A stretch of 64,000 bases of DNA. Source: Prevotellaceae bacterium UBA1391 (lineage in GTDB: Bacteria; Bacteroidota; Bacteroidia; Bacteroidales; Bacteroidaceae). Positions 153 through 60,757 of this stretch are shown here, piece after piece (position 1 is the first letter of the stretch; each line of letters starts with the position of its first letter). The notes beneath the pieces were generated by a model. That model had not been told where the DNA came from, made no database searches, and was given only the letters and a program-made list of their open reading frames with translations. The position numbers were made by a program, and so were the translations under genes. The stretch lies in the NCBI GenBank assembly GCA_002305265.1, contig DBQP01000007.1:29429-93428 (forward strand), read 5' to 3'.

Positions 153-160
153 CAAAGTTA
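153..160 (-). promoter_or_regulatory. Bacteroidota -7 promoter box (TAACTTTG on minus strand) for the dehydrogenase gene
   Basis: Plus strand reads CAAAGTTA, which matches the established TAnnTTTG -7 consensus on the minus strand. About 60 nt upstream of the ATG at 92. Confidence 0.4.
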
Positions 161-331
161 GAACATTTGGCCCGCTTTTTCAAATAATCGCTGATAAATA
201 TTCGCGCGTGCTGGTTTTCTGCGGCGCAGCGCTGTCGTGTGGAGTCGGCGCCTGCGGGGCTTCTGGCCAGCGCTTCTGTTGCCGTTGTGCGCCCTGTCGG
301 CGGGGATGCTGCTTCTGCGGCAGTTGATTGG

Positions 332-385
332 GGAGGCCTTCGTGTCGTCTCGCGAAGGCCTTCTTGTCGCGTTGCGAAGGCCTTC
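332..385. repeat. Triple-palindrome element, locus A: GGAGGCCTTC-N12-GAAGGCCTTC-N12-GAAGGCCTTC
   Basis: 10-mers start at 332, 354 and 376, exactly 22 bp apart. GAAGGCCTTC is its own reverse complement. The same architecture recurs at 19082, 31100, 41225 and 60704. Confidence 0.9.
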
Positions 386-4214: not shown

Positions 4215-5813
4215 ATGTTCGCGCAGAATAGTCCTATGGTCCGCCTTGGCATTCCTTTTCTGACTGGAATGCTGACGGCGGACTTCTGTTTGCGGCGATG
4301 GGCATGCCTGTCGTTGGGACTGTCGGTGCTGATGATGGTGATGTCGGCTGCGGTGATGCTTGCCGCCCATCGGGCGATACGGCCGGAGGCGCCGCGCCAG
4401 TTGCGCACGACGTTTGGCGTGAGCGTGATGCTTTTCTGCCTGTTGGCGGGCTGGACGGTGTATGGTCTGACGTATGAGCAGCGGGAGCAGGCTGCGCTGG
4501 CTGCGGGGCAGGGCGTGTGGCGAGGCCGCGTGATGCGGGTGGAAGAGAAGGAGAAGACCCTGGGCGTCGAGCTGAAACTGACGGACGGAAACCGCGTGCA
4601 GGCGTATGTGGCCAAGGATCGGAACGGACGGGTGCCGGCGCTGCATGTGGACGACGTGGTGGAGCTGAATCCATTGCACCGGACGACGCTGTCGCCACGC
4701 CAGCGCCGGATGTGGCCGAGCGAGGAGGAAGAACGATGGGGCGGCTATCGCGACCATTTGTTCTATGGCGGGACGGTGGCCTCGGGCTATGTTGCGTCGG
4801 GAGGCTGGCGCTTGGTGGGGAAGGGGACGGCGGACCGTTGGGCTATTTGGCGTTCGCACCTGCTGCAGGCTTACGAAAACGAGGGGCTGAACGAGGCTAC
4901 GGCCGGCATTTTGCCTGCGATGACTTTGGGAGATAAGACAGGTGTCGGCCCGGAGACGCGCGCCCACTTTGCTGCTTCCGGACTGTCGCATCTGCTGGCT
5001 TTGTCGGGCTTTCACCTCATGATCATACTCGGCGTGGTGGACGTGGTGCTGGCGCGCCGGATAATGAGCCGGCGGTGGCGGCATCTGACGGTGGCTGTGG
5101 TGATTCTCTGCATGTGGGCTTATGCGGCGTTGACAGGATTCAGCGCGAGCTTGACTCGTGCCGTCTTGATGGGAACGCTCTTCCAGTTGGCTTGGACCAT
5201 CGGGCGCAGCCGCTCGTTTCCCAATACGTGTGCTGCGGCTCTGGTGCTCATGCTCTGCTGGCATCCGCTGTGGATCAGAGACGTGGGATTCCAACTGTCG
5301 TTCCTGTCGGTGTGTGGCATCTATGTGGTGGGGCGCCCATTGTCGGAACGCTGGGTGGCGGCTTCGCGATGGAAGCGATGGGTTGTGAGCCCGGTGCTCA
5401 TCACTTTTTCGGCCACTTTGTTCACCTTTCCGCTGGTGGCTTTCTACTTTGGGCAGGTGCCACTGATGTCAATCGTGAGCAATTTGCTGGTGGCCTGGCT
5501 GGCGTCGGCGCTGATGTGGCTGGCCGTGGGATGGTGGGTGCTGCATCCGCTGGCCGCGGTAGGGAGCGTTCTCGCTGCAGGGCTGGTGCTGGTGTCGCGC
5601 GGCATGGAAAGAGTGGCGGCGCTGGTGGCCTCGCTGCGATGGGCGGTGCTGGATTATCGGCCGACGGCGGCGGAGGTGGTGCTGCTGTATGTGCTGCTGG
5701 CTGCCGGTGTATGGTTCGTCAGGAAGCGTGAGGCTCGTGCGCTGCAGGTGGGGCTGGCCGCAACGGCGGCAGTGTTCATTCTCCGCATTGTGCGTGCCTG
5801 TTGGCCTGGCTGA
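4215..5813 (+). CDS. comEC: ComEC/Rec2 family competence (DNA internalisation) membrane protein
   Basis: Polytopic membrane protein with the ComEC core motif FAASGLSHLLALSGFHLMIILG. Start uncertain: GTG 4173 overlaps the rpe stop, and I prefer the ATG at 4215. No C-terminal metallo-beta-lactamase domain. Confidence 0.75.
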   Translation: MFAQNSPMVRLGIPFLTGMLTADFCLRRWACLSLGLSVLMMVMSAAVMLAAHRAIRPEAPRQLRTTFGVSVMLFCLLAGWTVYGLTYEQREQAALAAGQGVWRGRVMRVEEKEKTLGVELKLTDGNRVQAYVAKDRNGRVPALHVDDVVELNPLHRTTLSPRQRRMWPSEEEERWGGYRDHLFYGGTVASGYVASGGWRLVGKGTADRWAIWRSHLLQAYENEGLNEATAGILPAMTLGDKTGVGPETRAHFAASGLSHLLALSGFHLMIILGVVDVVLARRIMSRRWRHLTVAVVILCMWAYAALTGFSASLTRAVLMGTLFQLAWTIGRSRSFPNTCAAALVLMLCWHPLWIRDVGFQLSFLSVCGIYVVGRPLSERWVAASRWKRWVVSPVLITFSATLFTFPLVAFYFGQVPLMSIVSNLLVAWLASALMWLAVGWWVLHPLAAVGSVLAAGLVLVSRGMERVAALVASLRWAVLDYRPTAAEVVLLYVLLAAGVWFVRKREARALQVGLAATAAVFILRIVRACWPG

Positions 5814-8168: not shown

Positions 8169-8300
8169 TGCACCCTTTTCTTGGCTTTATTGCACTCCGC
8201 TCGTAGCTTTTCTGCACTCCGCTCATTGCTTTCCTGCACTCCGCTCATTGCTTTCCTGCACTCCGCTCATAGCTTTCCTGCACTCCGCTCATTGCTATAC
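8169..8300. repeat. 22-bp tandem direct repeat, 5 good copies plus 1 degenerate (consensus TGCACTCCGCTCATTGCTTTCC)
   Basis: Unit starts at 8191, 8213, 8235, 8257 and 8279, each exactly 22 bp apart, with 0-3 mismatches per copy. A degenerate copy (14/22) lies at 8169-8190. The array sits between purT and dnaB. Confidence 0.9.
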
Positions 8301-10054: not shown

Positions 10055-10083
10055 CATGCTCGCCTCCAGCGCATTCTCGCTAC

Positions 10084-10123
10084 AAAAAAATCCTGCTACG
10101 GCTGTCGTAGCAGGATTTTTTTG
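10084..10123. terminator. Bidirectional rho-independent terminator between convergent dnaB and queF
   Basis: 11-bp stem ATCCTGCTACG / CGTAGCAGGAT (10090-10100 / 10106-10116) with a 5-nt loop. An A7 run lies on the left and a T-run on the right. Confidence 0.7.
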
Positions 10124-10286
10124 TATGATTTTGTGGTGAGACGTTGGCGTTGTTGAAACGAGGGGGCGCGCTTCAATGCATGATTCTACCGCGCTGTCAT
10201 ACCATTTCTTGTGTTGACAGTGTTTAGTCGCGCGGCAATGAAGGTGGCCAACATGGCTTCCATCAGCCCTCCCATGTGTCCTCCGC

Positions 10287-18867: not shown

Positions 18868-18902
18868 TATAGGATTGGTAGTAATGGTGTGGAAAGATAG
18901 TG

Positions 18903-18910
18903 CAAAGATA
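18903..18910 (-). promoter_or_regulatory. Bacteroidota -7 box (TATCTTTG on minus strand) for the GH43-rhaBA-MFS-rhaD operon
   Basis: Plus strand reads CAAAGATA, 36 nt upstream of the ATG at 18867. Confidence 0.4.
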
Positions 18911-19081
18911 AAGATTTTCTGCAGAAATCGCGCGGATGTGTTGCGAAAAGTTGGAACTGCGGCTCACTTTGCCGTGCGCCGGAATTGTATTTGTTCCGTT
19001 GTTTCCGCGTGTATAGGCTTTGCCGTGGCGACGTCGCTTCGCCCTGCACGTTCGGTTCGTGGGAAGGGGAGACGACAACGG

Positions 19082-19135
19082 GAAGGCCTTCGTCTCGTGT
19101 CGGGAAGGCCTTCCCGTCGTGCCAAGAAGGCCTCC
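19082..19135. repeat. Triple-palindrome element, locus B: GAAGGCCTTC-N12-GAAGGCCTTC-N12-GAAGGCCTCC
   Basis: 10-mers start at 19082, 19104 and 19126, spaced 22 bp. Confidence 0.9.
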
Positions 19136-25470: not shown

Positions 25471-26484
25471 ATGATAGAAAAGCATCTCGTGCTGGACGAC
25501 GTTGACCTACGTACCTTCTATGGTGTAAACAATATCCACCTGCAAATGCTGAAATCGCTCTATCCCAAATTGCGGATTATGGCGCGTGGAAACATCATCA
25601 AAGTATTGGGCGACGAACTGGAAATGTGTGCGTTTGAGGAGAATATCGGGAAGATGAAAGCGCACTGCGCCAAATACAACTCGCTGGACGAGGAGGTGAT
25701 TCTTAGCATCGTGAAAGGGCAGAAGACGAAGCAAGACGCCAGCGAGGACGGCAACGTCATCTGCTACAGCGTCAGCGGCAAGCCCATTCAACCGCGCAGT
25801 GAGAACCAGTTGAAACTTGTCGACTCGTATCGAACGAACGACATGCTCTTTGCGATTGGGCCGGCGGGAAGTGGCAAAACCTACATCAGCATCGCACTGG
25901 CGGTGCGCGCATTGAAAAATAAGGAGATTCGCAAGATTATCTTGTCGCGCCCCGCTGTTGAGGCAGGAGAGAAGCTCGGCTTCCTTCCGGGCGACATGAA
26001 AGAAAAAATCGACCCCTATCTGCAGCCGCTCTACGACGCCCTGCAGGATATGATTCCTGCGCAGAAACTGAATGAATATATGGAAACGAATGTCATTCAG
26101 ATAGCGCCGCTGGCTTTTATGCGCGGCAGGACGCTGAATGATGCGGTCGTCATCCTGGATGAGGCGCAGAACACGACAACCCAGCAGATCAAGATGTTTC
26201 TGACCCGCATGGGGCAGAACACGAAGATGATCGTGACGGGCGACCTCACCCAGATCGACCTTCCGCATTCCGTTCGCTCCGGTCTGCTGCAAGCCACTCA
26301 GGTGCTGTCCGAAGTCGACGGAATCTCCTTTGTGCAAATGAGCGAGAAAGACATTGTGCGTCATCGCCTCGTCACGCGAATTGTGAATGCGTACGACGCA
26401 TTCGACAAGGCGGAGGCAGAACGCAAACAACGCGAAAAAGAACTGAAGAAGCAGGCAACGGATCAGCTTCAGTCTGCACTCTGA
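25471..26484 (+). CDS. phoH: PhoH family ATPase
   Basis: Walker A motif GPAGSGKTY plus ...RPAVEAGEKLGFLPGD...DEAQN...GDLTQIDLP, typical of PhoH. Confidence 0.9.
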   Translation: MIEKHLVLDDVDLRTFYGVNNIHLQMLKSLYPKLRIMARGNIIKVLGDELEMCAFEENIGKMKAHCAKYNSLDEEVILSIVKGQKTKQDASEDGNVICYSVSGKPIQPRSENQLKLVDSYRTNDMLFAIGPAGSGKTYISIALAVRALKNKEIRKIILSRPAVEAGEKLGFLPGDMKEKIDPYLQPLYDALQDMIPAQKLNEYMETNVIQIAPLAFMRGRTLNDAVVILDEAQNTTTQQIKMFLTRMGQNTKMIVTGDLTQIDLPHSVRSGLLQATQVLSEVDGISFVQMSEKDIVRHRLVTRIVNAYDAFDKAEAERKQREKELKKQATDQLQSAL

Positions 26485-26556
26485 CAGAAATGTGAGAGGT
26501 TCGCTCATCCAATTCCGTTTCCCCTTCGTCCTTTTGTATTCACACGTTGTACGTTT

Positions 26557-26752
26557 TTCCGCTGCGTACCCGCTGATACAACCACAGCCCGCCGGAGCAT
26601 CGCCTTTGCTTGGCTGTTGATACAACCGCAGCTCACAGAAACTATTCCGCTGCGTACCCGCTGATACAACCACAGCCCGCCGGAGCATCGCCTCTGCTTG
26701 GCTGTTGATACAACCGCAGCTCACAGAAACTATTCCGCTGCGTGGCCGCTGT
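26557..26752. repeat. 88-bp tandem repeat, 2.2 copies, with an internal 44-bp sub-period
   Basis: Unit starts at 26557, 26645 and 26733 (the last partial). Copies 1 and 2 differ at one position. The core box TGATACAACC occurs at 26574, 26618, 26662 and 26706, exactly 44 bp apart. Confidence 0.9.
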
Positions 26753-26825
26753 GGAATCGCTGCTGACTGGTTGTTTTGTATTTTCATGGAGAATATTGTG
26801 CATACCCGTTAAATCAATAATAAGA

Positions 26826-27773
26826 ATGAAAGCCCTTACTCGTACCGACTTCAACTTCCCAGGTCAAGTTGACGTCTATCACGGCAAAGTCCGCGACGTT
26901 TACAACATCAACAACGACATCATGGTCATGGTGGCCACGGACCGCATTTCAGCCTTCGACGTTGTTCTTCCAAAGGGAATCCCCTTCAAGGGACAGGTGC
27001 TCAACCAAATCGCCGCGTCGTTTCTGGACGCTTCGAAAGACATCGTGCCTAACTGGAAACTTGCGACGCCAGACCCAATGGTTACGGTCGGTCTCAAATG
27101 TGAGGGATTTCGCGTGGAAATGATCATTCGCGGCTACCTCACGGGCAGCGCATGGCGCGAGTATCAGGTTGGATGCCGCGAGATTTGTGGCGTGGCGCTG
27201 CCTGATGGAATGCGCGAGAACGAGAAGTTCCCACACCCGATCATCACACCGACGACCAAGGCTGACGCCGGACACGACGAGAACATTTCGAAGGAAGAAA
27301 TCATCGAGCAAGGACTTGTCAGCCGTGAGGACTATGAGAAAATGGAGGAATACACGTATGCGCTCTTTGATCTCGGCACTCAGATGGCGGCGGAGAAAGG
27401 GTTGATTCTCGTCGACACGAAGTATGAGTTCGGCAAGCGCGACGGAAAAGTTTACCTCATCGACGAAGTTCACACCCCCGATTCCTCTCGCTATTTCTAT
27501 GCCGAGGGCTATGAAGAGAAGTTCGTCAAAGGTGAGCCGCAGCGTCAGCTCTCCAAGGAGTTTGTGCGTCAGTGGCTCATCGAGCACGATTTCATGAATC
27601 AGCCTGGCCAGACGATGCCTGAGATGACCGACGAGTTCGTCGACAGCATTTCCGATCGCTACATCGAACTCTACGAGCACATCGTCGGTCAGTCCTTCGT
27701 CAAGGCCTCCGAGGCCGATGATCTGGCTGAGCGCATCGAGCGCAATGTCGTTGACTGCCTTGCGCACCTCTGA
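26826..27773 (+). CDS. purC: Phosphoribosylaminoimidazole-succinocarboxamide synthase
   Basis: ORF trimmed to [26 protein letters not shown] at 26826. Long-form SAICAR synthetase motifs (...DRISAFD...LVDTKYEFG...). Confidence 0.9.
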
Positions 27774-27813
27774 TCAGCGTTTTGTCCCCGCACTGCAAAT
27801 GTAGAAAGATTGC

Positions 27814-27866
27814 AAGGGGTCCACTATGACGTCCGCTGTTGCGGGCGCCAGGTGGACCCCTTTTTG
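27814..27866 (+). terminator. Terminator-like hairpin downstream of purC
   Basis: 11-bp stem AAGGGGTCCAC / GTGGACCCCTT (27814-27824 / 27852-27862) followed by TTT. The 27-nt loop is long for a terminator. Confidence 0.5.
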
Positions 27867-28164
27867 CATTCCGTTCTTCTCCTCCGGTGTCCTTTCTCCG
27901 TGCTTGCAGTAATCAATCGTTGCACTCCCTGCATGAATGTCTTTCGTCCAGCGCAGCCTGTTTCTTCGCGTTGAGCACGTTGGATTCTCCTCAGGACCCT
28001 CCTTGGATACCTCTGGAAACCATCATGGATGCGCATGGAGCATCATCGATTCTTTCCCCCATCATTTCTAACTCATCTTCTCAATCATATTGGAACGCAC
28101 GACCGATGGACGTCCGGATGACTTCCGGATGGTTGTCCTCCTCCGTTCCATCCTTCCTTTTCCC

Positions 28165-28920
28165 ATGTCCGACTACGCGCAAGAAGCCATCAAGCCCTAT
28201 GGTGACGCCCAGGGCAGCAAGCGAAGTCAGGTGGAGACCATGTTCAACCGCATTGCGCACTCCTACGACCTGCTCAACCATACGCTTTCGCTCGGCATCG
28301 ACCGCATCTGGCGGCGCAATGCCATCCGTCACCTCAAGACGCTCACGTCAGCCCAACCGCCCCGGCGCATTCTCGACGTTGCCACTGGAACGGGCGATCT
28401 GACCCTGCTGGCCTATCGTGAGCTTCGCCCTCAGCACATCGACGGCGTCGACATCTCTTCCGAGATGATGGCCGTCGGACGTGAGAAAGTGGCGAAAGCC
28501 CGTCTTTCCGAGGTCGTCGACTTCCATTTGCAGGACTGCTCGGCCATGACGTTTCCGTCGCAAACTTTCGATGCCGTCATCTCGGCCTTTGCCTTGCGCA
28601 ACTTTCAGTATCTCGACGAATGCCTGGTTGAAATCAGACGGGTGATGAAGCCAGGAAGTCCGCTTGTCGCCATCGACCTCTGCACGCCCGTCGCGTTTCC
28701 CATGCGTCAGCTCTTCTGGATCTATCAGCGCTGCGTCATGCCCCTCATCGGACGCTTCATCTCGCATGACAACCACGCCTACGTCTATCTGCCGCAGACG
28801 ATGGCTGCCATCCCTCAAGCCGCCGACATGACGGCCATTTTCCGTCGCGCCGGCTTCACCCACACGGCCTATCGTCGTTTGCTCTTCGGCATGTGCATCC
28901 GCTATTCCGCACAGGCCTGA
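28165..28920 (+). CDS. ubiE: Demethylmenaquinone / ubiquinone-type C-methyltransferase (UbiE/MenG)
   Basis: ORF trimmed to MSDYAQEAIKPY... at 28165. Shows ...VETMFNRIAHSYDLLNHTLSLGIDRIWR... and the SAM motif ILDVATGTGDL. Confidence 0.85.
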   Translation: MSDYAQEAIKPYGDAQGSKRSQVETMFNRIAHSYDLLNHTLSLGIDRIWRRNAIRHLKTLTSAQPPRRILDVATGTGDLTLLAYRELRPQHIDGVDISSEMMAVGREKVAKARLSEVVDFHLQDCSAMTFPSQTFDAVISAFALRNFQYLDECLVEIRRVMKPGSPLVAIDLCTPVAFPMRQLFWIYQRCVMPLIGRFISHDNHAYVYLPQTMAAIPQAADMTAIFRRAGFTHTAYRRLLFGMCIRYSAQA

Positions 28921-28979
28921 CCCATTTTTCCCTCTCAACGGGGCGGCACCGCCACCCGACTTCATTCCTCTATTCTCTC

Positions 28980-29723
28980 ATGGAACAATACGGACTCATC
29001 GGCTATCCGCTCGGCCACTCCTTCTCCCGCTCTTTCTTTCAAGACAAATTCCAGAGCGAGGGCATCGAAGCGGAATACATCAACTTCGAGATTCCCGACA
29101 TCGACCGCATCTTGGAAGTGCTCGACGCTCACCCCGACCTGCGCGGCTTCAACGTGACCATCCCCTACAAGCAGAAAATCATTCCCTATCTTGACGAGGT
29201 GAGCCGCGAAGCCCGCGAGATAGGTGCCGTCAATGTGGTGAAGGTGGTCAACCGGGGCGGCTCACGCCAGCTCATCGGCTACAATTCCGATGTCATTGGT
29301 TTCCGCAACTCCATCGAGCCCTTGCTGCGTCCACACCATCGCCGTGCCCTCATTCTCGGCACGGGTGGTGCGAGCCGCGCCGTCCACTATGCGCTTCAGC
29401 GTCAGCTGGGCATCGAGACCGTGTTTGTATCCCGCTACGAGCGTCCCGGAACGGTCACCTATGACCACATCACGGCAGAGACGATGAGCGACTATCCCCT
29501 CATCGTCAACACCACGCCGCTGGGCATGTATCCCCATGTCGACGAATGTCCGCCATTGCCCTACGAGGCCATGACGTCCGACCATCTGCTCTTCGACCTC
29601 ATCTACAATCCTGAGCGCACGCGCTTCATGAACCGTGGGGCTGCGCAGGGCGCGGCAGTCAAAAACGGGCTCGAGATGCTGCTGCTGCAGGCCATCGCCT
29701 CTTGGACATACTGGAATGAGTAA
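28980..29723 (+). CDS. aroE: Shikimate dehydrogenase
   Basis: ORF trimmed to MEQYGLIGYPLGHSFS... at 28980. Contains ...GFNVTIPYKQ... and ...LGTGGASRAV.... Confidence 0.85.
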   Translation: MEQYGLIGYPLGHSFSRSFFQDKFQSEGIEAEYINFEIPDIDRILEVLDAHPDLRGFNVTIPYKQKIIPYLDEVSREAREIGAVNVVKVVNRGGSRQLIGYNSDVIGFRNSIEPLLRPHHRRALILGTGGASRAVHYALQRQLGIETVFVSRYERPGTVTYDHITAETMSDYPLIVNTTPLGMYPHVDECPPLPYEAMTSDHLLFDLIYNPERTRFMNRGAAQGAAVKNGLEMLLLQAIASWTYWNE

Positions 29724-30882
29724 GGCCGCATCCACCCGTCGCCCCCAGCGCCCCGCAGCTGCCAGCTCCGCGTCGTCCCGCGGGCGAGCGTCGTCGCGTC
29801 CGGCAGCGGCGTCCGACGCACCGTCCGGTCGCCAGCCGGCGCATGCCCGACGCGCCTCGCGCCTCCTCCGCAAGTTCCTCATCCATCTCTGCACCATGAT
29901 GTTCTTCCTGCTCCTCTTCCTGCTCCTGTCCATCAGTGGCTTCATCTATTACAAGGCGGTCGGCCCCAATCTCAGTCGGCGCGCCGCCCACAACGTGAGC
30001 ACGCTCACCGAGCCGGAAGCACTCGACGAGATGTATTCGCTCTATCCCCACCTGCGCCGTTGGCTCGTGGAGCGGAAGTCGCACGGACAGTGGCGCTCCA
30101 CCACGCTCACGACCCCCGACAACGTCCGCCTGCATGCATACGTCGTCCCGGCCGACCGCCCCACGCGGCGCACCGTCATCCTCATCCACGGCTATCGCAG
30201 CCAGGCCGTGGAGATGCTTCATCTCGCCTACCTCTATCACCATCAGCTCCACTTCAATGTCGTCATGCCCGACCTGCGCGCCCATGGCCACAGCCAAGGC
30301 AGCGCCATCGGCTTCGGCTATACCGATGCAGCCGACGTGCGCCTGTGGATGCACCATGCCGACTCGCTTTTCCGCCCGGAGCACGGCGAACACACGCAGA
30401 TGGTCATCCACGGCCTGTCGATGGGTGCAGCCACAGCCATGTTCGTGGCCGGCCAGCCGCAGCCGCCCTACGTGAAGGCCTATGTCGAGGACTGTGGCTA
30501 CAGCTCCGTCGACGCTGAGCTCACCTACATGCTGCGCCGCGACTATTTCCTCCCACGCTTCCCCTTCATCCCACTGGCCAGCCTCATCTGCCGCTGGCAG
30601 CAAGGCTGGAGCTTTCAGGAGGCCTCCTGCGTGGAGAGCCTGCGCCGCGCGCGTGCCCCCATGCTCTTCATCCACGGTACGGCCGACCGCTACGTGCCAT
30701 CGCACATGGTACACGAACTCTATGCAGCCAAACCGCATCAGAAGGAGATTTGGGAAGTGCCCGAAGTCACGCACGGACGTGCCTACCACGACTATCCCGC
30801 CGACTACGAGCGCCGCGTCAGCCGTTTCCTCGACCAATATCTTTATATGGAAGAAACTGCCGGCAGCGTGTCATTTCAATAA
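29716..30882 (+). CDS. Membrane-anchored alpha/beta hydrolase (S9/BAAT-like)
   Basis: ORF trimmed to MSKAASTRR... at 29716, overlapping aroE by 8 nt. It has an R/S/A-rich N-terminal tail, one TM helix and the nucleophile elbow HGLSMGA. Confidence 0.7.
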   Translation: MSKAASTRRPQRPAAASSASSRGRASSRPAAASDAPSGRQPAHARRASRLLRKFLIHLCTMMFFLLLFLLLSISGFIYYKAVGPNLSRRAAHNVSTLTEPEALDEMYSLYPHLRRWLVERKSHGQWRSTTLTTPDNVRLHAYVVPADRPTRRTVILIHGYRSQAVEMLHLAYLYHHQLHFNVVMPDLRAHGHSQGSAIGFGYTDAADVRLWMHHADSLFRPEHGEHTQMVIHGLSMGAATAMFVAGQPQPPYVKAYVEDCGYSSVDAELTYMLRRDYFLPRFPFIPLASLICRWQQGWSFQEASCVESLRRARAPMLFIHGTADRYVPSHMVHELYAAKPHQKEIWEVPEVTHGRAYHDYPADYERRVSRFLDQYLYMEETAGSVSFQ

Positions 30883-30889
30883 TTTTATT

Positions 30890-30897
30890 TATCTTTG
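30890..30897 (+). promoter_or_regulatory. Bacteroidota -7 box (TATCTTTG) reading into the GC-rich island upstream of the TPM gene
   Basis: Match to TAnnTTTG beginning 8 nt after the hydrolase stop. The next start codon (31373) is about 475 nt downstream. Confidence 0.4.
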
Positions 30898-31099
30898 CAT
30901 CAGACGCCGTTCGCATCAGCGCATCGCCCCACAGCGGGCCGTTGCGGCGGTGCATGCCCACTGTGGGATGATTGCTTCGCCCTGTGCCGACGTAGCACCG
31001 GTGCTGCCCAATCGATGCGCATCCGCCTCATCTGCCCTCCGCGCGAATCGCAGGCGACGACCTGCGCCGCGTCAGCCGCTCTTTTTCATCTTCCATCGC

Positions 31100-31153
31100 G
31101 AAGGCCTTCTACATGCATCACGAAGGCCTTCCCGACGCCGCGGAAAGGCCTTC
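31100..31153. repeat. Triple-palindrome element, locus C: GAAGGCCTTC-N12-GAAGGCCTTC-N12-AAAGGCCTTC
   Basis: 10-mers start at 31100, 31122 and 31144, spaced 22 bp. The spacers read best as the reverse complement of those at locus D. Confidence 0.9.
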
Positions 31154-34223: not shown

Positions 34224-34277
34224 AAGGCACGCCAGACCAAACCGACAGAGAGATGTCGGAATGGTCTGGCGTGCCTT
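34224..34277. terminator. Long hairpin between convergent yigZ and addB
   Basis: 16-bp stem AAGGCACGCCAGACCA / TGGTCTGGCGTGCCTT with a 22-nt loop that contains an inner CCGAC/GTCGG stem. The flanking T-runs are weak. Confidence 0.5.
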
Positions 34278-41069: not shown

Positions 41070-41077
41070 CAAAGTTA
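41070..41077 (-). promoter_or_regulatory. Bacteroidota -7 box (TAACTTTG on minus strand) for addA-addB
   Basis: Plus strand reads CAAAGTTA, 29 nt upstream of the ATG at 41041. Confidence 0.4.
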
Positions 41078-41224
41078 CGTTTTTTTTCCGACAGTTCGCC
41101 TTCTGTCGCCGAATATTTTCATCATTGCCGTGCGTCGCTCACACCGCAGTCGGGAGTGTCCGCCGCATGCAGTGGGGCGCAGCGGGCTTCGGAGCATCTT
41201 CCGCTGCGCGCGGTCGTGCGTCGG

Positions 41225-41278
41225 GGAGGCCTTCGTGGCGTGTCGGGAAGGCCTTCGTGATGCTGCAAGAAGGCCTTC
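41225..41278. repeat. Triple-palindrome element, locus D: GGAGGCCTTC-N12-GAAGGCCTTC-N12-GAAGGCCTTC
   Basis: 10-mers start at 41225, 41247 and 41269, spaced 22 bp. Confidence 0.9.
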
Positions 41279-42732: not shown

Positions 42733-42767
42733 GGTCGCACGCACCAACCGGTTTGAAACGCAACGGG

Positions 42768-42874
42768 CCGCGAAGGGCTCGCATGCGCAGGAGTCTGATG
42801 ATTTCCGACCTGCTTTCCGTACGATAGAAGCGGAGATGCAGGGGAAGACTCTTGCGCATGCGAGCCCTTCGCGG
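42768..42874. repeat. Large inverted repeat (28-bp arms, 51-nt spacer) between convergent rarA and the ROK kinase gene
   Basis: Left arm CCGCGAAGGGCTCGCATGCGCAGGAGTC (42768-42795). Right arm GACTCTTGCGCATGCGAGCCCTTCGCGG (42847-42874). There is one G/A difference, which is a G-U pair in RNA. Each arm contains the 12-bp palindrome CTCGCATGCGAG. Confidence 0.85.
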
Positions 42875-43007
42875 CTCGTTGTGGGATGGAGGGAGAGGCT
42901 GCGGCCGTTGTGGCATTCAGCCGTTTGATGGCAATATTCAGCAAACGTCCGGTCGGGAAGACGCAACGGCTGTTGTGATGTTCAGCCTGTCTGCGCGGCC
43001 CGAGGCT

Positions 43008-44039: not shown

Positions 44040-47000
44040 CTATTCGAGCAGTTTGTGGAGGGCCTGCTCGTTCTCGTTCTCGCCGTAGTAGGCCACGAAC
44101 TCTTTCGGGGTCATGCCGAAGAAGTCGTGGAAGTTGCTGGAGAAGTAGCTGTGGGAGGAGAATCCCACGCGGTAGGCAGCCTCGCTGATGTTCACCTGCT
44201 TGTTGGCCAGCATCCAGGCTGCTTGCTTGAGCCGCACGGAGCGGATGTAGGCATTGGGCGAAATGCCGCAAAGTTTTTTGAGCTTGCGGTTGAGGTGGAC
44301 GCGGCTGATGCCGACTTCGGCGGCCAGACTGTCGACGGAGAAGTCGCTGTCGTCGAGGTGGTTGATGATGGTCTGGCGAATGTTCTGCATGAGTCGGTCG
44401 TCGGCAGAGTCAGAAACGGTGGAGGCGTATTCGGCGGTCATCTGCGTGCGGCGTACCTTCAGGAGAATCTGGTCGCGCAGACGGGTGACTTGCGCGATGG
44501 CGCTGAGCAGCATCTTGCTGTTGAACGGTTTGGGGAGGAAGTGCTCGGCCTGGAGTTCGACGGCCTGCAGATGGTTCTTGGCATCCGACTCGGACGTGAG
44601 GACAATGACGGCAATCTGGTCGGTCTCTGGGTTGGACTTGATGCGTCGGAGCAGCTCGAATCCATTGCCGTCGGGCATGTTGATGTCTGTCACGACGATG
44701 TCGGGACGTTCCTTCAGCAGCTGCTTCCAGGCGGTATTGCCGCTCTTGGCTGTCGACACATCGTAGTCGCCGTCGAGATGCTGGCGCATGTATTGCAGCA
44801 GTTCGCCGTCGTCGTCGACCAGCAACACTTTGTAGGGACTGTTCTCAGCCTTCGGCCTCTCGGACTGAGGGGGGGCTTTTTCTGCTCCAGTTTCGGGCTG
44901 GGTGGTGACGTCGTCCGCATCCTCCGCTGCGTCGTTCGCATCGTCGGCGGCGTCGTCCGTGTCATCGGTGGTGTCATCCGTCGTGGACGAAACTTCGTCT
45001 GGCTGGGGTTCCAACAGCTTGTCGTCGGGAATGACGTATGGCGGAATAGAGGCGTCGACTGCCAGTTCTTCTTCGGAGAGGAAGGCGAAACCGAGCGGAA
45101 TGCGCACGATGAATTCGACGCCGTCGGGCTCAAGGTTGCGTGCAGAGACGGTGCCGTGGTGCAGACGGGTGATTTCCATGGCCAGGTTGAGTCCGATGCC
45201 CGAGCCGCTGCGCTCTTGCTGAGGAGGCGCCTGGTAGAAGCGTTCGAAGATTCGGGTCAGGTCTTTCTCGTTGATGTGGGAACCGCTGTTGTAGACGGTG
45301 AGCTCCGCATATTCGGCAATCAGACTGTTGGGCAGCACGAGCGAGCCATCCGCTGCGATGTTGGAATGGCGCCGGATGCGCAATATAATGCGTCCGTTGG
45401 CCGGTGTGAACTTGATGGCGTTGGAGAGCAGGTTGTTGATGATTTTCTCGAAATGGATGGGATCGATCCATGCTGTCGGTGACTTCTGCTCGCTCTCGAT
45501 GGTCAGGTCGATGTTGCGGACCATGGCCATGCCCTTGAAGGAAGTGAGGAGGGCGCGGACATAGCGCAGCAGGTCTATCTCCTGGAAGTGGAGCGTGAAC
45601 TGCCCGTTGTCGATCTTGCGCACGTCGGTAATCTGATTGACCACGTTGAGCATGCGGTTGCAGTTGCGTTCCATGATCTGATAGTTGTCCTGCGTCTCTG
45701 AGTCGGACGCACGGCTCATGAGTTCTTTCAGCGGCGAAATGATCATGGTGAGCGGTGAGCGGAGCTCGTGGGCGATGGACGTGAAGAGACGGAGCTGCGC
45801 CTCCTTCACTTCTGCCGTGTGTATCGAATGGCGCAAACGTGCCTTCGCACGTCGACGCTCCTTCACGTTGCGATAGATGGTGTAGACGATGAACAGTGCG
45901 ATGAGCGCATAGATGATGAAGGCCCACCACGTGGCATAGAAGGGTGCGGGGATGTAGATTTGCAGAATGGCTTCGCTCATTTGGGCCTGGTCGGGCTGTT
46001 CGAGGTCGATGTTGTTGTCTTCGAAGAAGGCAACGACGCGGAGCTTGTATGTTCCGGGTGTGAGATTGGCGTAATAGGCCTGCGGATTTTTGGCGGAGGC
46101 GGTGTGCCAGATTTTCTCATAGCCTTCCAGTCGGTAGGTGTAGCTGACGCGGCTGGGCTCGCTGAATTCGGGTACGGAGAAGGACACAAGTATGGCGTGA
46201 TCTCCGACTCGCAGGCGCGCCGATGTGGCGTGGAGGATGGAGGAGTTCAGCGTATTCTCGGCGCTATCGACATAGATGACGTTGTGGTTGTTGACACGGA
46301 GGCCTGTGAAGCGCACTTGCTTGATGCGCTGTGAGCGTTGCAACACCTCTTTCGGGTTGAAGAGGAGGACGCCATTGTCTGCTCCGAACATCATCCGATT
46401 GTCCTGAAGGTGAATGGAGGCACAGCGGTGGAACGCTCCCATGTTGTTTCCGGAGAACGAAGTGTAGGTCCGCATCTCACCGGTCTTGAGGCTGATGCAG
46501 TACAAAGCCCGGCGTGTCGTGAACCAGATGTGTGTCGGGGTGGGCTGGATGGCGATGATCGACAGGCCGCGGGTCTTCTCCGTCCATGCGGCTTCTTCTA
46601 TTTGGAATGACTGCTTGTCGGCGACATAGATGCCGTCATTTGTTCCCAGAAAGACTTGGTTGCGGTCTTCTGCGATGTCTTCGACGTTGATGACTTTTTT
46701 GTCGGGGAATGTAACGGTAGTCGCCTGGTTGCTGATGGGGTTATAACAGCATAGGTTGTTGATGTCTGCAATCCATAAGATGCTGTTGCTGTCGATGTGG
46801 AACATGTTCGCCCAAGCAAACGGATAGTTGTTGGGCATGATCCGGTTGATGGTCTGCTTGTTGATGTTGACGGCATAGAGTCCGTCGCCATTGGTGAGCG
46901 CATAGAGGATGTCGGTGCGCTTGTCGTAGGTGAGGGACATCACGTTCATATCAGCCAGTGGACCGACAAACGGTGGTGTGGAGACAACGCCGTTGCTCAA

Positions 47001-48284
47001 TCGCTTCAAGCCGCCTCTCCAGGCGCCGAGCCAGGTGTCTCCGTGTTTGTCTGTAGCCAGGGCCTGGACCAACGTCGACGTGGCATCGTTGACGACTTGC
47101 TGGGGCATGCTCCGGGGCGCGACAGAGAAGACGCCGCTTCCGTCCGTGCCAATGAGGACGCGGTTGGGGGCTGTCTGCGTAAAGGAAGTGACGCAGGAGG
47201 CATTCAGGTCCTTGTTGTCGGGGGAGAGCGGGAGGTAGTGGAAGCCGGTGGAACGGTGGGGTAGGATGAGCAGGCCATGCTGATAGATGGCGGCAATCAG
47301 GTTTCCGTCGGCATCTTCCTTCAAGTCGTGCACCTTAGCATGGCGCATGTTGATGCGGCTGACTTGGGCTTCCAACACGTTGAGTTCCTCGGTTAGGGGA
47401 TTCATGGTCCATATACCACTGTTGTCTGTTCCTATGAGAATCTGGCCTGTGTGGCTGAGCAGCAGGGTCTGAATGAAGAGGTCCCGGTGGTTGTGTCTCA
47501 CCTCGCGCAGAATTTTGCTGGTGCGGTCGTAGACGAGCAGACCGCCGCGAGAGAGGCCAATGAAGACTTTGTCGCCGCGCTTCGACTCATGAAAGGCCAT
47601 GATAGAGCTTTTGTCCAGCAGCTGCTTGGCTTCGGGGGAAATGCGCAGCTCGATGGACTTGTTGTGCTCCATGTCGGCCACGATCAGGTGCACCGTGCGT
47701 CCGCTGGCCCAAAGCCAGCCCTTGCTGTCGAGCATGGCGCGCTCGATGTGCACGTCCGACATCAGTCGATTGAGCGCCAGCGTGCGTTGTGTGTCGGGGG
47801 TTTGGTTCTTGATGTTCAGCACGTAAGAACCGTAGCCTTGCGTCATGATATAGCGGACGCCATGCTTTTTGTTTTCAACGATGCGGGAGACGGAGTAGCT
47901 GCCAAGCGGCTCGTCTTCGGCCAGTTTGATGCGGGTGAAGGAGTTCTTGCGCTTGTCGAAGCTGAAAAGGCCCATGTTGGTTCCCAGCCAGAAGTGGTTG
48001 GAATCGGTGGGGTAGATGCTTCGGATTTCGGCAAAGCGCGGCTGACCGGTCTTGGGATCGGTGCAATCGACTTGATGGAAGCTGATTCCGTCGAAAATCT
48101 CGAAGGTCTCGCTGGTGGCGAGCCAAACAAGGTTTTGCTCGTCTACGCAAATGTAGTTGACATAGGAATTCTGCATTCCACTCTCCAGTGAGTGGAATGC
48201 CGGGACTTGTGCCTTAAGGACAAGGGCACACAGTCCCAGCCATATGGTTGTGCGGATGCGCAAATAGAGGCTGCGGTAGTTCAT
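44040..48284 (-). CDS. Hybrid two-component system sensor kinase / response regulator with AraC-type HTH (HTCS)
   Basis: 1414 aa. It has a signal/anchor sequence, a periplasmic beta-propeller plus Y_Y_Y region and a TM helix. These are followed by the H-box FTSIAHELRSPL, HATPase (GSGIGLNL), REC (LLVDDD...TDINMPDG) and a C-terminal AraC HTH (...GFSSHSYFSSNFHDFFGMTPKEF). Confidence 0.9.
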   Translation of the reverse strand: MNYRSLYLRIRTTIWLGLCALVLKAQVPAFHSLESGMQNSYVNYICVDEQNLVWLATSETFEIFDGISFHQVDCTDPKTGQPRFAEIRSIYPTDSNHFWLGTNMGLFSFDKRKNSFTRIKLAEDEPLGSYSVSRIVENKKHGVRYIMTQGYGSYVLNIKNQTPDTQRTLALNRLMSDVHIERAMLDSKGWLWASGRTVHLIVADMEHNKSIELRISPEAKQLLDKSSIMAFHESKRGDKVFIGLSRGGLLVYDRTSKILREVRHNHRDLFIQTLLLSHTGQILIGTDNSGIWTMNPLTEELNVLEAQVSRINMRHAKVHDLKEDADGNLIAAIYQHGLLILPHRSTGFHYLPLSPDNKDLNASCVTSFTQTAPNRVLIGTDGSGVFSVAPRSMPQQVVNDATSTLVQALATDKHGDTWLGAWRGGLKRLSNGVVSTPPFVGPLADMNVMSLTYDKRTDILYALTNGDGLYAVNINKQTINRIMPNNYPFAWANMFHIDSNSILWIADINNLCCYNPISNQATTVTFPDKKVINVEDIAEDRNQVFLGTNDGIYVADKQSFQIEEAAWTEKTRGLSIIAIQPTPTHIWFTTRRALYCISLKTGEMRTYTSFSGNNMGAFHRCASIHLQDNRMMFGADNGVLLFNPKEVLQRSQRIKQVRFTGLRVNNHNVIYVDSAENTLNSSILHATSARLRVGDHAILVSFSVPEFSEPSRVSYTYRLEGYEKIWHTASAKNPQAYYANLTPGTYKLRVVAFFEDNNIDLEQPDQAQMSEAILQIYIPAPFYATWWAFIIYALIALFIVYTIYRNVKERRRAKARLRHSIHTAEVKEAQLRLFTSIAHELRSPLTMIISPLKELMSRASDSETQDNYQIMERNCNRMLNVVNQITDVRKIDNGQFTLHFQEIDLLRYVRALLTSFKGMAMVRNIDLTIESEQKSPTAWIDPIHFEKIINNLLSNAIKFTPANGRIILRIRRHSNIAADGSLVLPNSLIAEYAELTVYNSGSHINEKDLTRIFERFYQAPPQQERSGSGIGLNLAMEITRLHHGTVSARNLEPDGVEFIVRIPLGFAFLSEEELAVDASIPPYVIPDDKLLEPQPDEVSSTTDDTTDDTDDAADDANDAAEDADDVTTQPETGAEKAPPQSERPKAENSPYKVLLVDDDGELLQYMRQHLDGDYDVSTAKSGNTAWKQLLKERPDIVVTDINMPDGNGFELLRRIKSNPETDQIAVIVLTSESDAKNHLQAVELQAEHFLPKPFNSKMLLSAIAQVTRLRDQILLKVRRTQMTAEYASTVSDSADDRLMQNIRQTIINHLDDSDFSVDSLAAEVGISRVHLNRKLKKLCGISPNAYIRSVRLKQAAWMLANKQVNISEAAYRVGFSSHSYFSSNFHDFFGMTPKEFVAYYGENENEQALHKLLE

Positions 48285-48307
48285 GGTAGCTTTCTGAATC
48301 TGTCTTG

Positions 48308-48315
48308 CAAAATTA
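48308..48315 (-). promoter_or_regulatory. Bacteroidota -7 box (TAATTTTG on minus strand) for the HTCS gene
   Basis: Plus strand reads CAAAATTA, 24 nt upstream of the ATG at 48284. Confidence 0.4.
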
Positions 48316-48398
48316 AGCTCTTTTTGTCATGTTGCAAAATATTGCACCTCCTAATTATGCCTGAATTGCGCGTTTCGATGTTTTTTTTGTCAGTAAGA

Positions 48399-50423
48399 TT
48401 ATGGGATGGGCATCTCGAATGGAGTGGCTGGCAGCGATGTGCGTCCGTAGAGGTTGGCACGAAGTGGGTTGTTTTTCCATGCGTAGCGCAGGAAGGCGGC
48501 CTTCTCCATGCCTTCGGGAAGGCGGACAATGAGGTTCTGACCTTCGGCGCGCGCGTCGGCATTGCGGAAGCGGCGGTCTGCCGAGGCGAGCTCCACCTCA
48601 TGGATGCGGGTGGAGGGGCTGAGCGGTGCGTCGAATGTGATAACCACCTCGTTTCCCTTTCGCAGGGCGCTGACGGGTGCTGGCGACAGCTCGTTCTTCT
48701 TTTGGAAGACCAGGCGGTCGAAGCAGTTGGCTGCGCGCTCTGCAATGAGATGCTTGCGCAGGGGGTGGATGTCGACGTTCTCACCGCAGTCGATGGCTAC
48801 GACGAGGCCGGAGTGGGCGTCGAACTGGGCCACTGTGCGCTGCGCCTCGCGCAGTTGTGCCCATCCTGTTTCCTGCGGTTGGAGCGAGGGGGCCATGTGA
48901 TTGGCGAGCTGGACGATGGCAAAGGCCAGTTCCGGTTGCTCGAACGCCTTGCGCCAGTCGGCCTCCAACGCAGCCAGCTGGTCGGCATAGAGTTGAGCAC
49001 GTCCCGTGTTGGATTCTCCCTGATACCACACCACGCCGCTGATGGCATAGGGCGCGAGAGGCGCCAGCATGGCGTTGTAGAGCGTGGACGGCAAATTCTG
49101 CAGGGCGGCGCCTCCGCCTCTCTGCGTGGGCATGGTGCAGCCCACGCGCTTGAGCCATGTGGTGGCAAGACGGACTGTGTCTTTTGTGTCTTCAAAGACG
49201 AGCATGTAGGGCTTTTCCGGGATGAAGTGCGGAATGCCGCTCTTGTTCACGAATCGGATGGTAAGGACGTTGTCGCCTTCCTTGAGCAGGCCGGCAGGAA
49301 TACTGTAGCGGCGCGGCGGATACTGGTAGTAGGTGCGGCCTACTTCCTTTCCGTTGAGATACGTATAGTCTTGATCGTAAAGTGTGCCCAGCAACAGTAG
49401 GGCGGGGCGTCCTGCATGCGCGGCGTCGATGTGGATGTGCTGGCGCAGATACAGGGTGCCGCAGAAGCTGCGCCCACTCACGAGCTGCGTGCTCTGCAAG
49501 CCGTAGGATGCGAGGTCCTGACATTCTGCCAGGCGTCGCTTCAGGCCTTGATTGGTGGCATCGTCGGCCTGTGGCTGCGCCCAGTCGGCCAGATTCGGCT
49601 GAAACTGCTCGACGGCTTGCCACTCCGGCCCTTCTCGATAGGAAGATGAGGTCCAGTCCTCCTTCAGTCCGAGGTCGCGTTCGGCGAGCATCTTTTCCCA
49701 GCGGTTGCTGCTGGCGGCGGATGCCCGGCTCCAAGCTTCCACCATGTTTGCGTCGTCCCACACCTGGGTTTCCTCATATTGTTCGGGCCAGCGCGAGCGC
49801 ATGGTCTCGCTGCTGAGCCAGGCCTCGATGGGCGTGCCGCCCCAGCTGGTCTGGATGATGCCTTGCGGCACACCATGGCGCCGCTTCATTTCTTTTCCGA
49901 GGAAGTAGCCGACGGCGGAAAACTGCCAGGCGTCCTGCTTCGAGAGCGGCTGCCAGGCGGTGGTCCGTGTGTGTGTCTGTGTCTCGTGGGTGTTGGTTTG
50001 ATTGATGACCCGGATGAGTCGGATGTGGTTGTCGTTCGCCGCATCAACCTCAGCGGAGTAGATGGGGTAGACCCGCTCGATGTTGACATCGATGTTGCTC
50101 TGTCCGGAGCAGATCCACACGTCGCCGATGAGCACATCCGTCAGCTCCGTTCCGGCGATGTTGAGCGTATAGGGGCCGCCGGCTTTCTGCTTGGGCAGCT
50201 GGATGCGCCATTTGCCATCCGCTCCTGCAGTGGTGGTGTAGGTGTGTCCGCGGAATACAACGTCAACGCGCTCGCCGCTGTCGGCTGTTCCCCAGACGGG
50301 GATTTCGCGTCCGCGCTGGAGCACCATGCCGTTTTGAAACAGGGATGCTGGCTTGACAGTTGCCATGGCGGAGAGGCAAGAGGCAAGTGCAAGAATGAAA
50401 GTGAGGTTTCGCTGTGATTTCAT
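48399..50423 (-). CDS. Sialate O-acetylesterase-like (SASA/SGNH) carbohydrate esterase, probable acetyl-xylan esterase
   Basis: ORF trimmed to MKSQRNLTFILALASCLSAMA at 50423. SASA-type GDVWICSGQSN motif. Sits in a xylan cluster. Confidence 0.75.
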   Translation of the reverse strand: MKSQRNLTFILALASCLSAMATVKPASLFQNGMVLQRGREIPVWGTADSGERVDVVFRGHTYTTTAGADGKWRIQLPKQKAGGPYTLNIAGTELTDVLIGDVWICSGQSNIDVNIERVYPIYSAEVDAANDNHIRLIRVINQTNTHETQTHTRTTAWQPLSKQDAWQFSAVGYFLGKEMKRRHGVPQGIIQTSWGGTPIEAWLSSETMRSRWPEQYEETQVWDDANMVEAWSRASAASSNRWEKMLAERDLGLKEDWTSSSYREGPEWQAVEQFQPNLADWAQPQADDATNQGLKRRLAECQDLASYGLQSTQLVSGRSFCGTLYLRQHIHIDAAHAGRPALLLLGTLYDQDYTYLNGKEVGRTYYQYPPRRYSIPAGLLKEGDNVLTIRFVNKSGIPHFIPEKPYMLVFEDTKDTVRLATTWLKRVGCTMPTQRGGGAALQNLPSTLYNAMLAPLAPYAISGVVWYQGESNTGRAQLYADQLAALEADWRKAFEQPELAFAIVQLANHMAPSLQPQETGWAQLREAQRTVAQFDAHSGLVVAIDCGENVDIHPLRKHLIAERAANCFDRLVFQKKNELSPAPVSALRKGNEVVITFDAPLSPSTRIHEVELASADRRFRNADARAEGQNLIVRLPEGMEKAAFLRYAWKNNPLRANLYGRTSLPATPFEMPIP

Positions 50424-60703: not shown

Positions 60704-60757
60704 GAAGGCCTTCATGGCGGTTTACGAAGGCCTTCGTATCGGTTTGCGAAGGCCTTC
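60704..60757. repeat. Triple-palindrome element, locus E: three perfect GAAGGCCTTC copies
   Basis: 10-mers start at 60704, 60726 and 60748, spaced 22 bp. Confidence 0.9.

Follow-up and report, generated by a model that had tools for sequence, protein, structure and literature searches.

The question raised by this locus is what keeps three copies of one 10-bp palindrome, GAAGGCCTTC, at a fixed spacing between two genes, and why the same arrangement recurs nearby. We searched the window (the whole 64-kb stretch of DNA analyzed) for GAAGGCCTTC with at most one mismatch and obtained 19 matches, compared with 2.09 expected, and none of 100 shuffled sequences reached 19. Fifteen of the 19 matches form five triplets (Table 1), in which the interval between neighboring copies is exactly 22 bp in 10 of 10 cases. 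Eleven of the 15 copies are perfect, and the remaining 4 carry one edge mismatch each, at position 1, 2, or 9 (GGAGGCCTTC twice, GAAGGCCTCC, and AAAGGCCTTC). All four imperfect copies are outer ones; the middle copy is perfect at all five loci. The search thus confirmed the triple palindrome, its 22-bp phasing, the five loci, and the tally of perfect and one-mismatch copies given in an earlier note on this DNA, and it showed enrichment over a shuffled expectation. Tandem Repeats Finder (TRF) called the 22-bp period at three of the five loci. The five arrays are identical in independent JGI, Logan, and NCBI assemblies, indicating that they are real sequence and not an assembly artifact.

We also scored every window position for three 10-mers 22 bp apart, with mismatches summed over the 30 palindrome positions. 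The five arrays have 0 or 1 mismatch in 30 positions, and the other low scores were all shifted registers of those same arrays. This scoring of the whole window revealed no decayed arrays, doublets, or singletons beyond chance, and the four near-matches to GAAGGCCTTC outside the arrays are within the chance expectation (2.09). The copy number is exactly three at every window locus, and no phased palindromes of any other sequence occur elsewhere in the window. A further 7.4 kb past the window ends contained no additional array, and the density is therefore about 1 array per 14 kb (5 in 71.4 kb). The sample is five loci from one 64-kb window. Restriction-modification avoidance of AGGCCT was considered separately and rejected, as 30 further copies of AGGCCT are present outside the arrays, with no sign of avoidance.

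Table 1. Arrays of the phased palindrome in the window, with their gaps, their neighboring genes, and one possible associated feature
Feature	Positions	Strand	Copy starts	Composition and gap	Neighboring genes
Array 1	332..385	+	332/354/376	GGAGGCCTTC-N12-GAAGGCCTTC-N12-GAAGGCCTTC; gap 612 bp, divergent	Left, UDP-glucose dehydrogenase (-, start about 102); right, HU-HIG DNA-binding protein gene (+, about 715)
Array 2	19082..19135	+	19082/19104/19126	Two perfect copies plus GAAGGCCTCC; gap 379 bp	Left, GH43-like gene start (-, 18866); right, GH25 lysozyme gene stop (-, 19246)
Array 3	31100..31153	-	31100/31122/31144	Inverted relative to the other four, judged from the spacers; gap 490 bp	Left, alpha/beta-hydrolase gene stop (+, 30882); right, TPM-domain gene start (+, 31373)
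Array 4	41225..41278	+	41225/41247/41269	Gap 386 bp, divergent	Left, AddA-like helicase-nuclease gene (-, start about 41047); right, rarA (+, 41434)
Array 5	60704..60757	+	60704/60726/60748	Three perfect copies; gap 767 bp	Left, gene for 1141-aa protein (-, start 60122); right, GH43 gene (-, stop 60890)
Possible extended left arm (weak evidence)	153..331	+		From -7 box TAACTTTG (minus strand, 153-160) to array 1	

Written in a common orientation, the repeated unit is GAAGGCCTTC-gTGnCGnnTnnn, and "GG" directly precedes copy 1 at four of the five loci. Comparison of the spacers showed that the units run head to tail with a common polarity and that array 3 aligns with the other four only as the reverse complement. 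Pairwise identity across loci was 95.3% for the palindromes, 47.5% for the 12-nt spacers, and 27% for the adjacent 12-nt flanks, which is the random level. The earlier description of a polar 22-bp unit with related spacers, inverted at 31100, was therefore borne out. The five-locus alignment shows no conservation outside the 54 bp.

Within the 54 bp, mismatches to the consensus affect 4 of 150 palindrome positions and 39 of 120 spacer positions (2.7% versus 32.5%; Fisher p = 7.6e-12). Together with the occurrence of the same 10-mer at five loci, this difference indicates that one exact sequence is under selection. The shared 10-mer also argues against selection for structure only and against correction within arrays, since either would allow locus-specific palindromes. 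The spacing is likewise constrained, as none of the 10 spacers has an indel despite about 54 substitutions inferred in the spacers across the five loci; the probability of finding no indel is about 0.004, a value that rests on an assumed indel-to-substitution ratio of 0.1. Other assemblies of the same species are nearly identical, and the proteins of the nearest relatives share only 77 to 81% identity. Only two positions vary among six assemblies of the locus 2 gap, one being a 1-nt indel at the outward-facing end of an outer palindrome. This indel makes the outer copy perfect in two assemblies, leaves the internal spacing unaffected, and is the sole array polymorphism between strains; the arrays in the locus 3 and locus 4 gaps are invariant. 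These patterns point to purifying selection on one specific sequence and its spacing, and they speak against both a recent burst and a selfish repeat in decay.

The gene map (GC3 based, plus Pfam) places all five arrays in long intergenic gaps (379 to 767 bp), in agreement with the earlier note, and these make up five of the nine window gaps longer than 340 bp. The GC content of the window is 50 to 66%. The gaps had also been described as unusually GC rich; their GC content is 0.57 to 0.60 in four cases and 0.49 in the fifth, compared with roughly 0.41 to 0.52 in most other long gaps. Every array gap includes a gene start. An array lies downstream of a gene end at three loci, and there is no upstream gene end at the other two. 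Where the flanking genes are in tandem (three gaps), the array always presents the same end to the gene downstream. The neighboring genes are functionally unrelated and comprise housekeeping and glycan degradation functions. Pfam detected no transposase among the window genes, and no Y1 transposase or RAYT was found there.

The Bacteroidetes-type -7 box TAnnTTTG occurs 24 times in the window, compared with 10.6 expected, and most occurrences are in gaps upstream of genes and in the correct orientation. At loci 1, 2, 4, and 5, a consensus -7 box is located between the array and the downstream gene, 148 to 314 bp from the array. Array 5 follows the strong intrinsic terminator of the GH43 gene (a 12-bp GC stem and a U-rich tail) by about 50 nt, and 314 bp separate it from the -7 box of the next gene downstream. 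Given the -7 boxes on the gene side of the arrays and the terminator before array 5, most arrays are probably untranscribed. Array 3 might be transcribed as an exception, as its only consensus -7 box (30890 to 30897, plus strand) precedes the array by 203 nt and is oriented so that transcription toward the TPM-domain gene would cross the array. We also considered the arrays as sigma-54 enhancers, that is, upstream activating sites for bacterial enhancer-binding proteins (bEBP). This was rejected because the -24/-12 motif TGGCAC-N5-TTGC is not enriched (65 versus 80.8 expected) and has no good match between array and gene.

The proteins encoded in the window are closest to those of metagenome-assembled genomes (MAGs) labeled Bacteroidaceae, Prevotellaceae, or Prevotella, with identities of 76 to 81%. 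Four relatives, whose RarA is about 80% identical, were represented by about 82 kb of sequence, in which there were no arrays or other phased palindromes. At the density of the window, 5.7 arrays would be expected in those 82 kb, and the probability of finding none is 0.003. Comparison of orthologous intergenic regions, as the earlier note had suggested, was possible for the AddA-RarA gap in two relatives that keep synteny. There the gap measures 110 and 214 bp, compared with 386 bp in the window organism, and is AT rich, with little more than promoters and no array. The shorter, array-free gap in the relatives indicates that the locus 4 array and the GC-rich DNA around it were added in this lineage.

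Among metagenome contigs, the three-copy pattern was found at 16 loci. Four contigs of the foregut metagenome ADGC01, which we take to be from the tammar wallaby, carry 3, 3, 7, and 12 copies, with spacers that differ between loci; these contigs are Prevotella-like, judged by their EttA protein. Upstream of sufB, a Bacteroidetes contig carries 2.5 copies, and on a contig encoding a dockerin-bearing protein (L029) three copies lie between convergent genes. These metagenome arrays have the same 10-mer and the same period as the arrays of the window, and their spacers are unrelated. Since the 22-bp spacing was imposed by the search pattern, only the additional copies within the metagenome arrays are independent evidence for the period. 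Homogeneous arrays (L025, L032, L034, L035, L038, L037, L026/L028/L033, and L036) were given no weight. A scan of the first five of these contigs found no open reading frame (ORF) of at least 120 aa near the array; L037 carries the same array. The homogeneous arrays could be chance 22-bp minisatellites, of which we estimate that a handful with this 10-mer could occur in such a collection.

The two-copy pattern gave only scattered single matches over many phyla in the genome collection, consistent with chance or ordinary hairpins. Viral contigs gave no match. Literature searches with the 10-mer or 8-mer retrieved only primers and unrelated motifs. Rfam returned no matches at the gathering score and none at the arrays at an E value of 1 or below, so that the arrays are not assigned to a known Rfam family. 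The earlier statement that this is not a described family therefore holds so far, and the arrays are apparently an undescribed, lineage-restricted, dispersed noncoding element.

Our preferred reading of these sequence patterns, which we hold tentatively, is that each array is a cooperative triple operator for a dimeric, sequence-specific protein on duplex DNA, placed in promoter-side spacers and having an architectural, boundary, or long-range regulatory role. The three dyad-symmetric GAAGGCCTTC sites are 22 bp apart from center to center, or about 2.1 helical turns, and would lie on nearly the same face of the helix; the two-turn phasing proposed earlier holds. Three dimers, or a hexamer or filament, of the putative protein would bind the array cooperatively. 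Binding would begin at the perfect middle site and extend, through cooperativity, to the outer sites, where edge mismatches are tolerated. Bound at promoter-upstream DNA, such a protein might act as a boundary or roadblock, in long-range repression or activation, or in nucleoid organization, and would not control one pathway.

Several observations argue for such an operator. The sites are conserved while the intervening DNA varies, and the spacing is fixed at a whole number of helical turns, both as in an operator array. The same 10-mer at all loci favors recognition by a trans-acting factor over selection for pairing alone. The invariant 12-nt spacer would serve helical phasing on the duplex and is not needed for a hairpin loop. 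The lack of structure beyond the palindromes and the recurrence of the 10-mer, with unrelated spacers, on the metagenome contigs also speak for this reading. The unrelated neighboring genes and the density of arrays fit a global or architectural factor, and the location of the arrays between a transcription unit and its neighbor's promoter makes an architectural or regulatory role likely. Of the three roles put forward in the earlier note, a binding array for a dimeric protein is thus the best supported, given the exact sequence, the spacing, the all-or-none copies, and the likely untranscribed spacers; a REP/BIME-like element fits only loosely, and an uptake signal does not stand.

Other observations count against an operator. 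A classical bacterial activator or repressor would be expected closer to the promoter than the 148 to 314 bp that separate the arrays from the nearest -7 box, and only loci 1 and 2 share the same distance (172 bp each). For a transcription factor, a density of one site per 14 kb is high. Array 3 is possibly transcribed, and the array on contig L029 is between convergent genes. In addition, a perfect 10-bp stem is possible, and edge mismatches would be equally tolerated in a hairpin, so that they do not discriminate between hairpin and protein models.

Among known systems, the closest in behavior appear to be tandem palindromic operators, for example ARG boxes, and dispersed nucleoid-protein sites; the arrays differ from both in position, density, and triplet architecture. 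The ARG boxes of ArgR are 18-bp palindromes about 21 bp apart from center to center, and the metboxes of MetJ and the three regularly spaced Ss-LrpB boxes are cooperatively bound tandem palindromic operators. The arrays share with these the dyad-symmetric sites at whole helical turns and the strong central site with weaker outer sites. However, those operators overlap or abut the promoters of a defined regulon, whereas the arrays are 148 to 314 bp from promoters of unrelated genes, occur about once per 14 kb, and have a 10-bp palindrome made of abutting 5-bp half-sites. Noc (NBS), SlmA (SBS), MatP (matS), and RacA (ram) recognize dispersed chromosomal sites that are single and often inside genes. 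Here too the site is a scattered palindrome of 10 to 16 bp, in their case recognized by a dimeric protein without the logic of a regulon, but those sites are several times sparser, and the arrays are phased triplets confined to intergenic gaps.

Centromere and iteron arrays are a further comparison. The sopC centromere of F consists of 43-bp repeats, each with a 16-bp inverted repeat, and R6K and pPS10 have 22-bp iterons. Shared features are the tandem repeats, a core bound by protein (presumed for the arrays), and a period held strictly at about two or four turns (22 bp in many iterons). Iteron and centromere arrays occur once or twice per replicon, near par or rep genes, AT-rich unwinding regions, and DnaA boxes. 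In contrast, the arrays described here occupy five chromosomal loci in 64 kb, in GC-rich gaps, with none of those neighbors.

The main alternative, possible but doubtful, is that the arrays are REP/BIME-like elements acting as hairpins in single-stranded DNA or RNA, with two copies pairing and the third available as an alternative partner. Such elements would be recognized and spread by an enzyme specific for both structure and sequence, for example a HUH transposase of the RAYT type, or they would affect supercoiling or the 3' ends of mRNAs. The hairpin potential noted earlier is real, as adjacent copies can pair in single-stranded DNA or RNA to form a perfect 10-bp stem with a 12-nt loop. 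The predicted DNA hairpins have energies of -17.7 to -21.1 kcal/mol, with z scores of -4.2 to -6.3 relative to shuffled sequences, and all four edge mismatches map to the stem ends, where imperfect pairing could be tolerated in a hairpin. When the spacers and flanks were shuffled and the palindromes kept, the element strand gave z scores of -0.5 to -1.5 and the opposite strand gave +1.1 to -1.5. There is thus no significant stability beyond that of the palindromes alone, extra complementarity of the flanks included, and the loop length, invariant in 10 of 10 cases, is not required by a hairpin.

Like REP/BIME elements, the arrays consist of palindromic short units in high copy number (five arrays per 71.4 kb) that are extragenic, dispersed, lineage specific, and capable of forming hairpins when single stranded. 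The AddA-RarA gap, 170 to 280 bp shorter in relatives without the array, fits an insertion. In addition, a k-mer assembly contig breaks inside array 4, and three arrays are downstream of a gene end. REP/BIME elements are, however, defined as imperfect palindromes of 20 to 40 nt that have an unpaired GTAG or CGTC tag at one end, are mostly arranged as inverted dimers, and flank an associated RAYT (IS200/IS605-type Y1 transposase) gene (PMC3733652). By these criteria the arrays differ, since they have no such tag at a fixed position (CGTC or TGTC stands 2 nt upstream of copy 2 at three loci only) and run head to tail at a fixed 22 bp instead of forming head-to-head or tail-to-tail dimers. The stem, moreover, arises here from two separate self-complementary 10-mers. 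The window encodes no RAYT, Y1, or other transposase, the copy number is always three, and the range of decayed or partial copies typical of REP or MITE populations is missing. No gene ends upstream of two of the five arrays, and a terminator precedes array 5.

A third explanation, which we consider unlikely, is that the arrays are functionless relics of an old minisatellite-bearing, MITE-like mobile element that is now decaying, with the palindromes kept by biased repair or template switching at quasi-palindromes. The residual similarity of the spacers relative to the flanks and the common polarity are consistent with descent from one 22-bp unit, and the wallaby gut contigs vary from 3 to 12 copies, as a minisatellite would. 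Terminal inverted repeats or target-site duplications, which the earlier note had proposed to look for, did not emerge: there is no inverted repeat common to the loci and no flank homology by local alignment. Local alignment, an inverted-repeat search, and shared k-mers across the flanks revealed no leader, tail, or terminal inverted repeats, and the flanks gave no consistent signal of coding periodicity or of a 22-bp periodicity. The left flanks of loci 1 and 2 (153 to 331 and 18903 to 19081) have 40.5% identity in an ungapped, in-register alignment, the best of 121 offsets, with a z score of about 4. The left flank of array 4 (41070 to 41224) fits these two best at an offset of 23 to 24 nt. 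At loci 1, 2, and 4, the -7 box of the leftward gene is 172, 172, and 148 bp away from the array, respectively, and the offset at locus 4 matches this difference. The ancestral unit may therefore have been longer, or the promoter geometry at these three loci may matter; we regard this faint similarity as a lead only.

The relic explanation has a Bacteroidales precedent in BrickBuilt of Porphyromonas gingivalis, a 23-nt minisatellite that is always intergenic and present in 19 copies per genome. The number of repeats in BrickBuilt ranges from 1 to 22.8, partial forms exist, and the leader and tail arms are conserved and have IS5-like terminal inverted repeats (PMC4596501). The arrays resemble BrickBuilt in being dispersed, intergenic, species-restricted tandem repeats of Bacteroidales with a unit of 22 rather than 23 nt, located tens to hundreds of nucleotides from the flanking genes. 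Unlike BrickBuilt or a MITE, they have three copies at each of the five loci, a palindromic core, and diverged spacers, with no detectable arms or inverted repeats and no partial or degenerate arrays. Neutral decay cannot produce divergences of 2.7% and 32.5% at adjacent positions. Quasi-palindrome correction would keep the symmetry but not the same 10-mer, and the symmetric variants that it predicts were not seen.

An extension of the triple-operator reading, which we consider quite unlikely, is that the arrays act as boundaries throughout the genome. There would then be a few hundred triple operators, with many of the gaps that separate transcription units having one each. An architectural protein, acquired horizontally and patchy in its distribution among lineages, would bind them and would insulate neighboring promoters or organize the nucleoid. 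As every site contains AGGCCT and hence GGCC, binding might compete with a DNA methyltransferase, and the array would then be an epigenetic switch. If this reading were true, bacteria would have an equivalent of insulator elements, written in a simple sequence code.

It is very unlikely that the arrays are cis-regulatory RNAs in long 5' leaders, in which mutually exclusive hairpins (1:2 or 2:3) form a switch or a platform for an RNA-binding protein. Such alternative hairpins are predicted, array 3 has the upstream -7 box pointing through it, and three of the four edge mismatches would be G-U wobbles on the element strand. However, at loci 1, 2, 4, and 5 the predicted transcription start lies between the array and the gene, the downstream genes have no functional relationship, and Rfam gave no match. 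The consensus fold has a covariation term of -0.4 kcal/mol; its 10 palindrome pairs do not covary, and only three flank pairs adjoining the palindromes keep pairing through changes on both sides, with no extra structure detected. Finally, a DNA uptake signal for natural transformation is effectively refuted by the copy distribution: the motif is short and overrepresented and a ComEC-type competence protein is encoded at 4215 to 5810, but ComEC is widespread and not diagnostic, and 15 of 15 copies are in phased intergenic triplets, with none solitary or inside a gene, whereas known uptake sequences are single copies, about one per kb, and largely inside genes.

Dispersed intergenic repeats are common in bacteria, and most are clearly selfish (REP/RAYT and MITEs) or unexplained. 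An exact triplet at two helical turns with drifting DNA in between would be the signature of a trans-acting factor that reads duplex DNA. If a protein that binds the arrays were found, it would represent a new global DNA-binding system in gut bacteria of the Prevotella/Bacteroides type, whose transcription and chromosome architecture are poorly understood, and would explain the long GC-rich gaps of this genome that are missing in relatives. If there is no such protein, the arrays would be a REP-like family of new architecture in a phylum with few described families. The 54-bp array is usable as a bait to fish for the protein and provides an immediate experimental handle. The sequence GAAGCGCTTC is a designed mutant form of GAAGGCCTTC.

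The palindrome arrays were compared with those in other assemblies. At the outer copy of array 2 (positions 19126 to 19135), four assemblies carry GGAGGCCTTC (reverse strand) and two carry the perfect GAAGGCCTTC. Comparison with the contigs L052 and L054 shows that this polymorphism is due to a 1-nt indel of A; across the 391 bp of the alignment, just one other position varies. At array 4, the k-mer assembly contig SRR5321225_5 (Logan; handles L041 and L046) stops within the array, at window position 41249. A contig break at this point would be expected if part of array 4 recurs elsewhere in the genome. Over a longer distance, the second strain L040 (JGI Ga0416721_001096) is 98.9% identical to the window across 20.9 kb, with 218 mismatches and one gap. 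Of these differences, 201 are located between 45.5 and 49 kb, mostly within the gene for a 1,414-amino-acid hybrid two-component-system protein. The cluster of differences at 45500 to 49000 looks like a recombination tract.

The GC skew of the plus strand is negative from approximately 26 to 31 kb and positive over nearly all of the remaining window. Array 3 (31100), the only inverted array, lies at the right edge of this negative-skew segment (approximately 26000 to 31000). This position could reflect a local inversion, or the orientation of the array could be linked to strand composition.

Additional repeats were found in and outside the window, several of them with a period related to 22 bp (see the table). 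The GCTTTCCTGCACTCCGCTCATA repeat falls within the gap of 543 bp that precedes dnaB (8474). Its period is equal to that of the palindrome arrays, but its unit is unrelated and nonpalindromic. The 88-bp repeat is located in the gap separating phoH from the SAICAR synthetase gene; its periods of 44 and 88 bp are 2 and 4 times 22, and GTTGATACAAC palindromes are present inside it. In L031, a contig of the foregut metagenome ADGC01, the GTTGAAATGTGAAATGAGCGCA repeat immediately adjoins a GAAGGCCTTC array downstream of ettA, and the two repeats are unrelated. At the GH43-like gene, the duplication of GTGCAAAGATA results in two overlapping candidate -7 boxes.

Positions of tandem and inverted repeats other than the palindrome arrays
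Feature	Sequence	Position	Copies or arms	Details
Tandem duplication of -7 promoter box region, GTGCAAAGATA	Window	18889-18910	2 copies	11-bp period
22-bp tandem repeat, unit GCTTTCCTGCACTCCGCTCATA	Window	8184-8296	5.1 copies	92% matches
88-bp tandem repeat	Window	26557-26751	2.2 copies	44-bp subperiod
Second 22-bp tandem repeat, unit GTTGAAATGTGAAATGAGCGCA	L031 (ADGC01)	150-253	~4 copies	
Inverted repeat	Window	42761-42881	36-nt arms	94% complementary, 49-nt spacer

The very long inverted repeat occurs once in the window and occupies the convergent gap between rarA and the ROK kinase gene. Its predicted RNA fold has a free energy of -106.5 kcal/mol (z = -11), and its Rfam match to mir-H11 was below the threshold (E = 3e-4). 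In comparison, the ordinary bidirectional terminators at 10081 to 10125 and 34224 to 34277 are far smaller. The tetranucleotide CTAG is nearly missing from the whole window, with 2 copies (23416 and 56550) compared to approximately 87 expected from trinucleotide frequencies.
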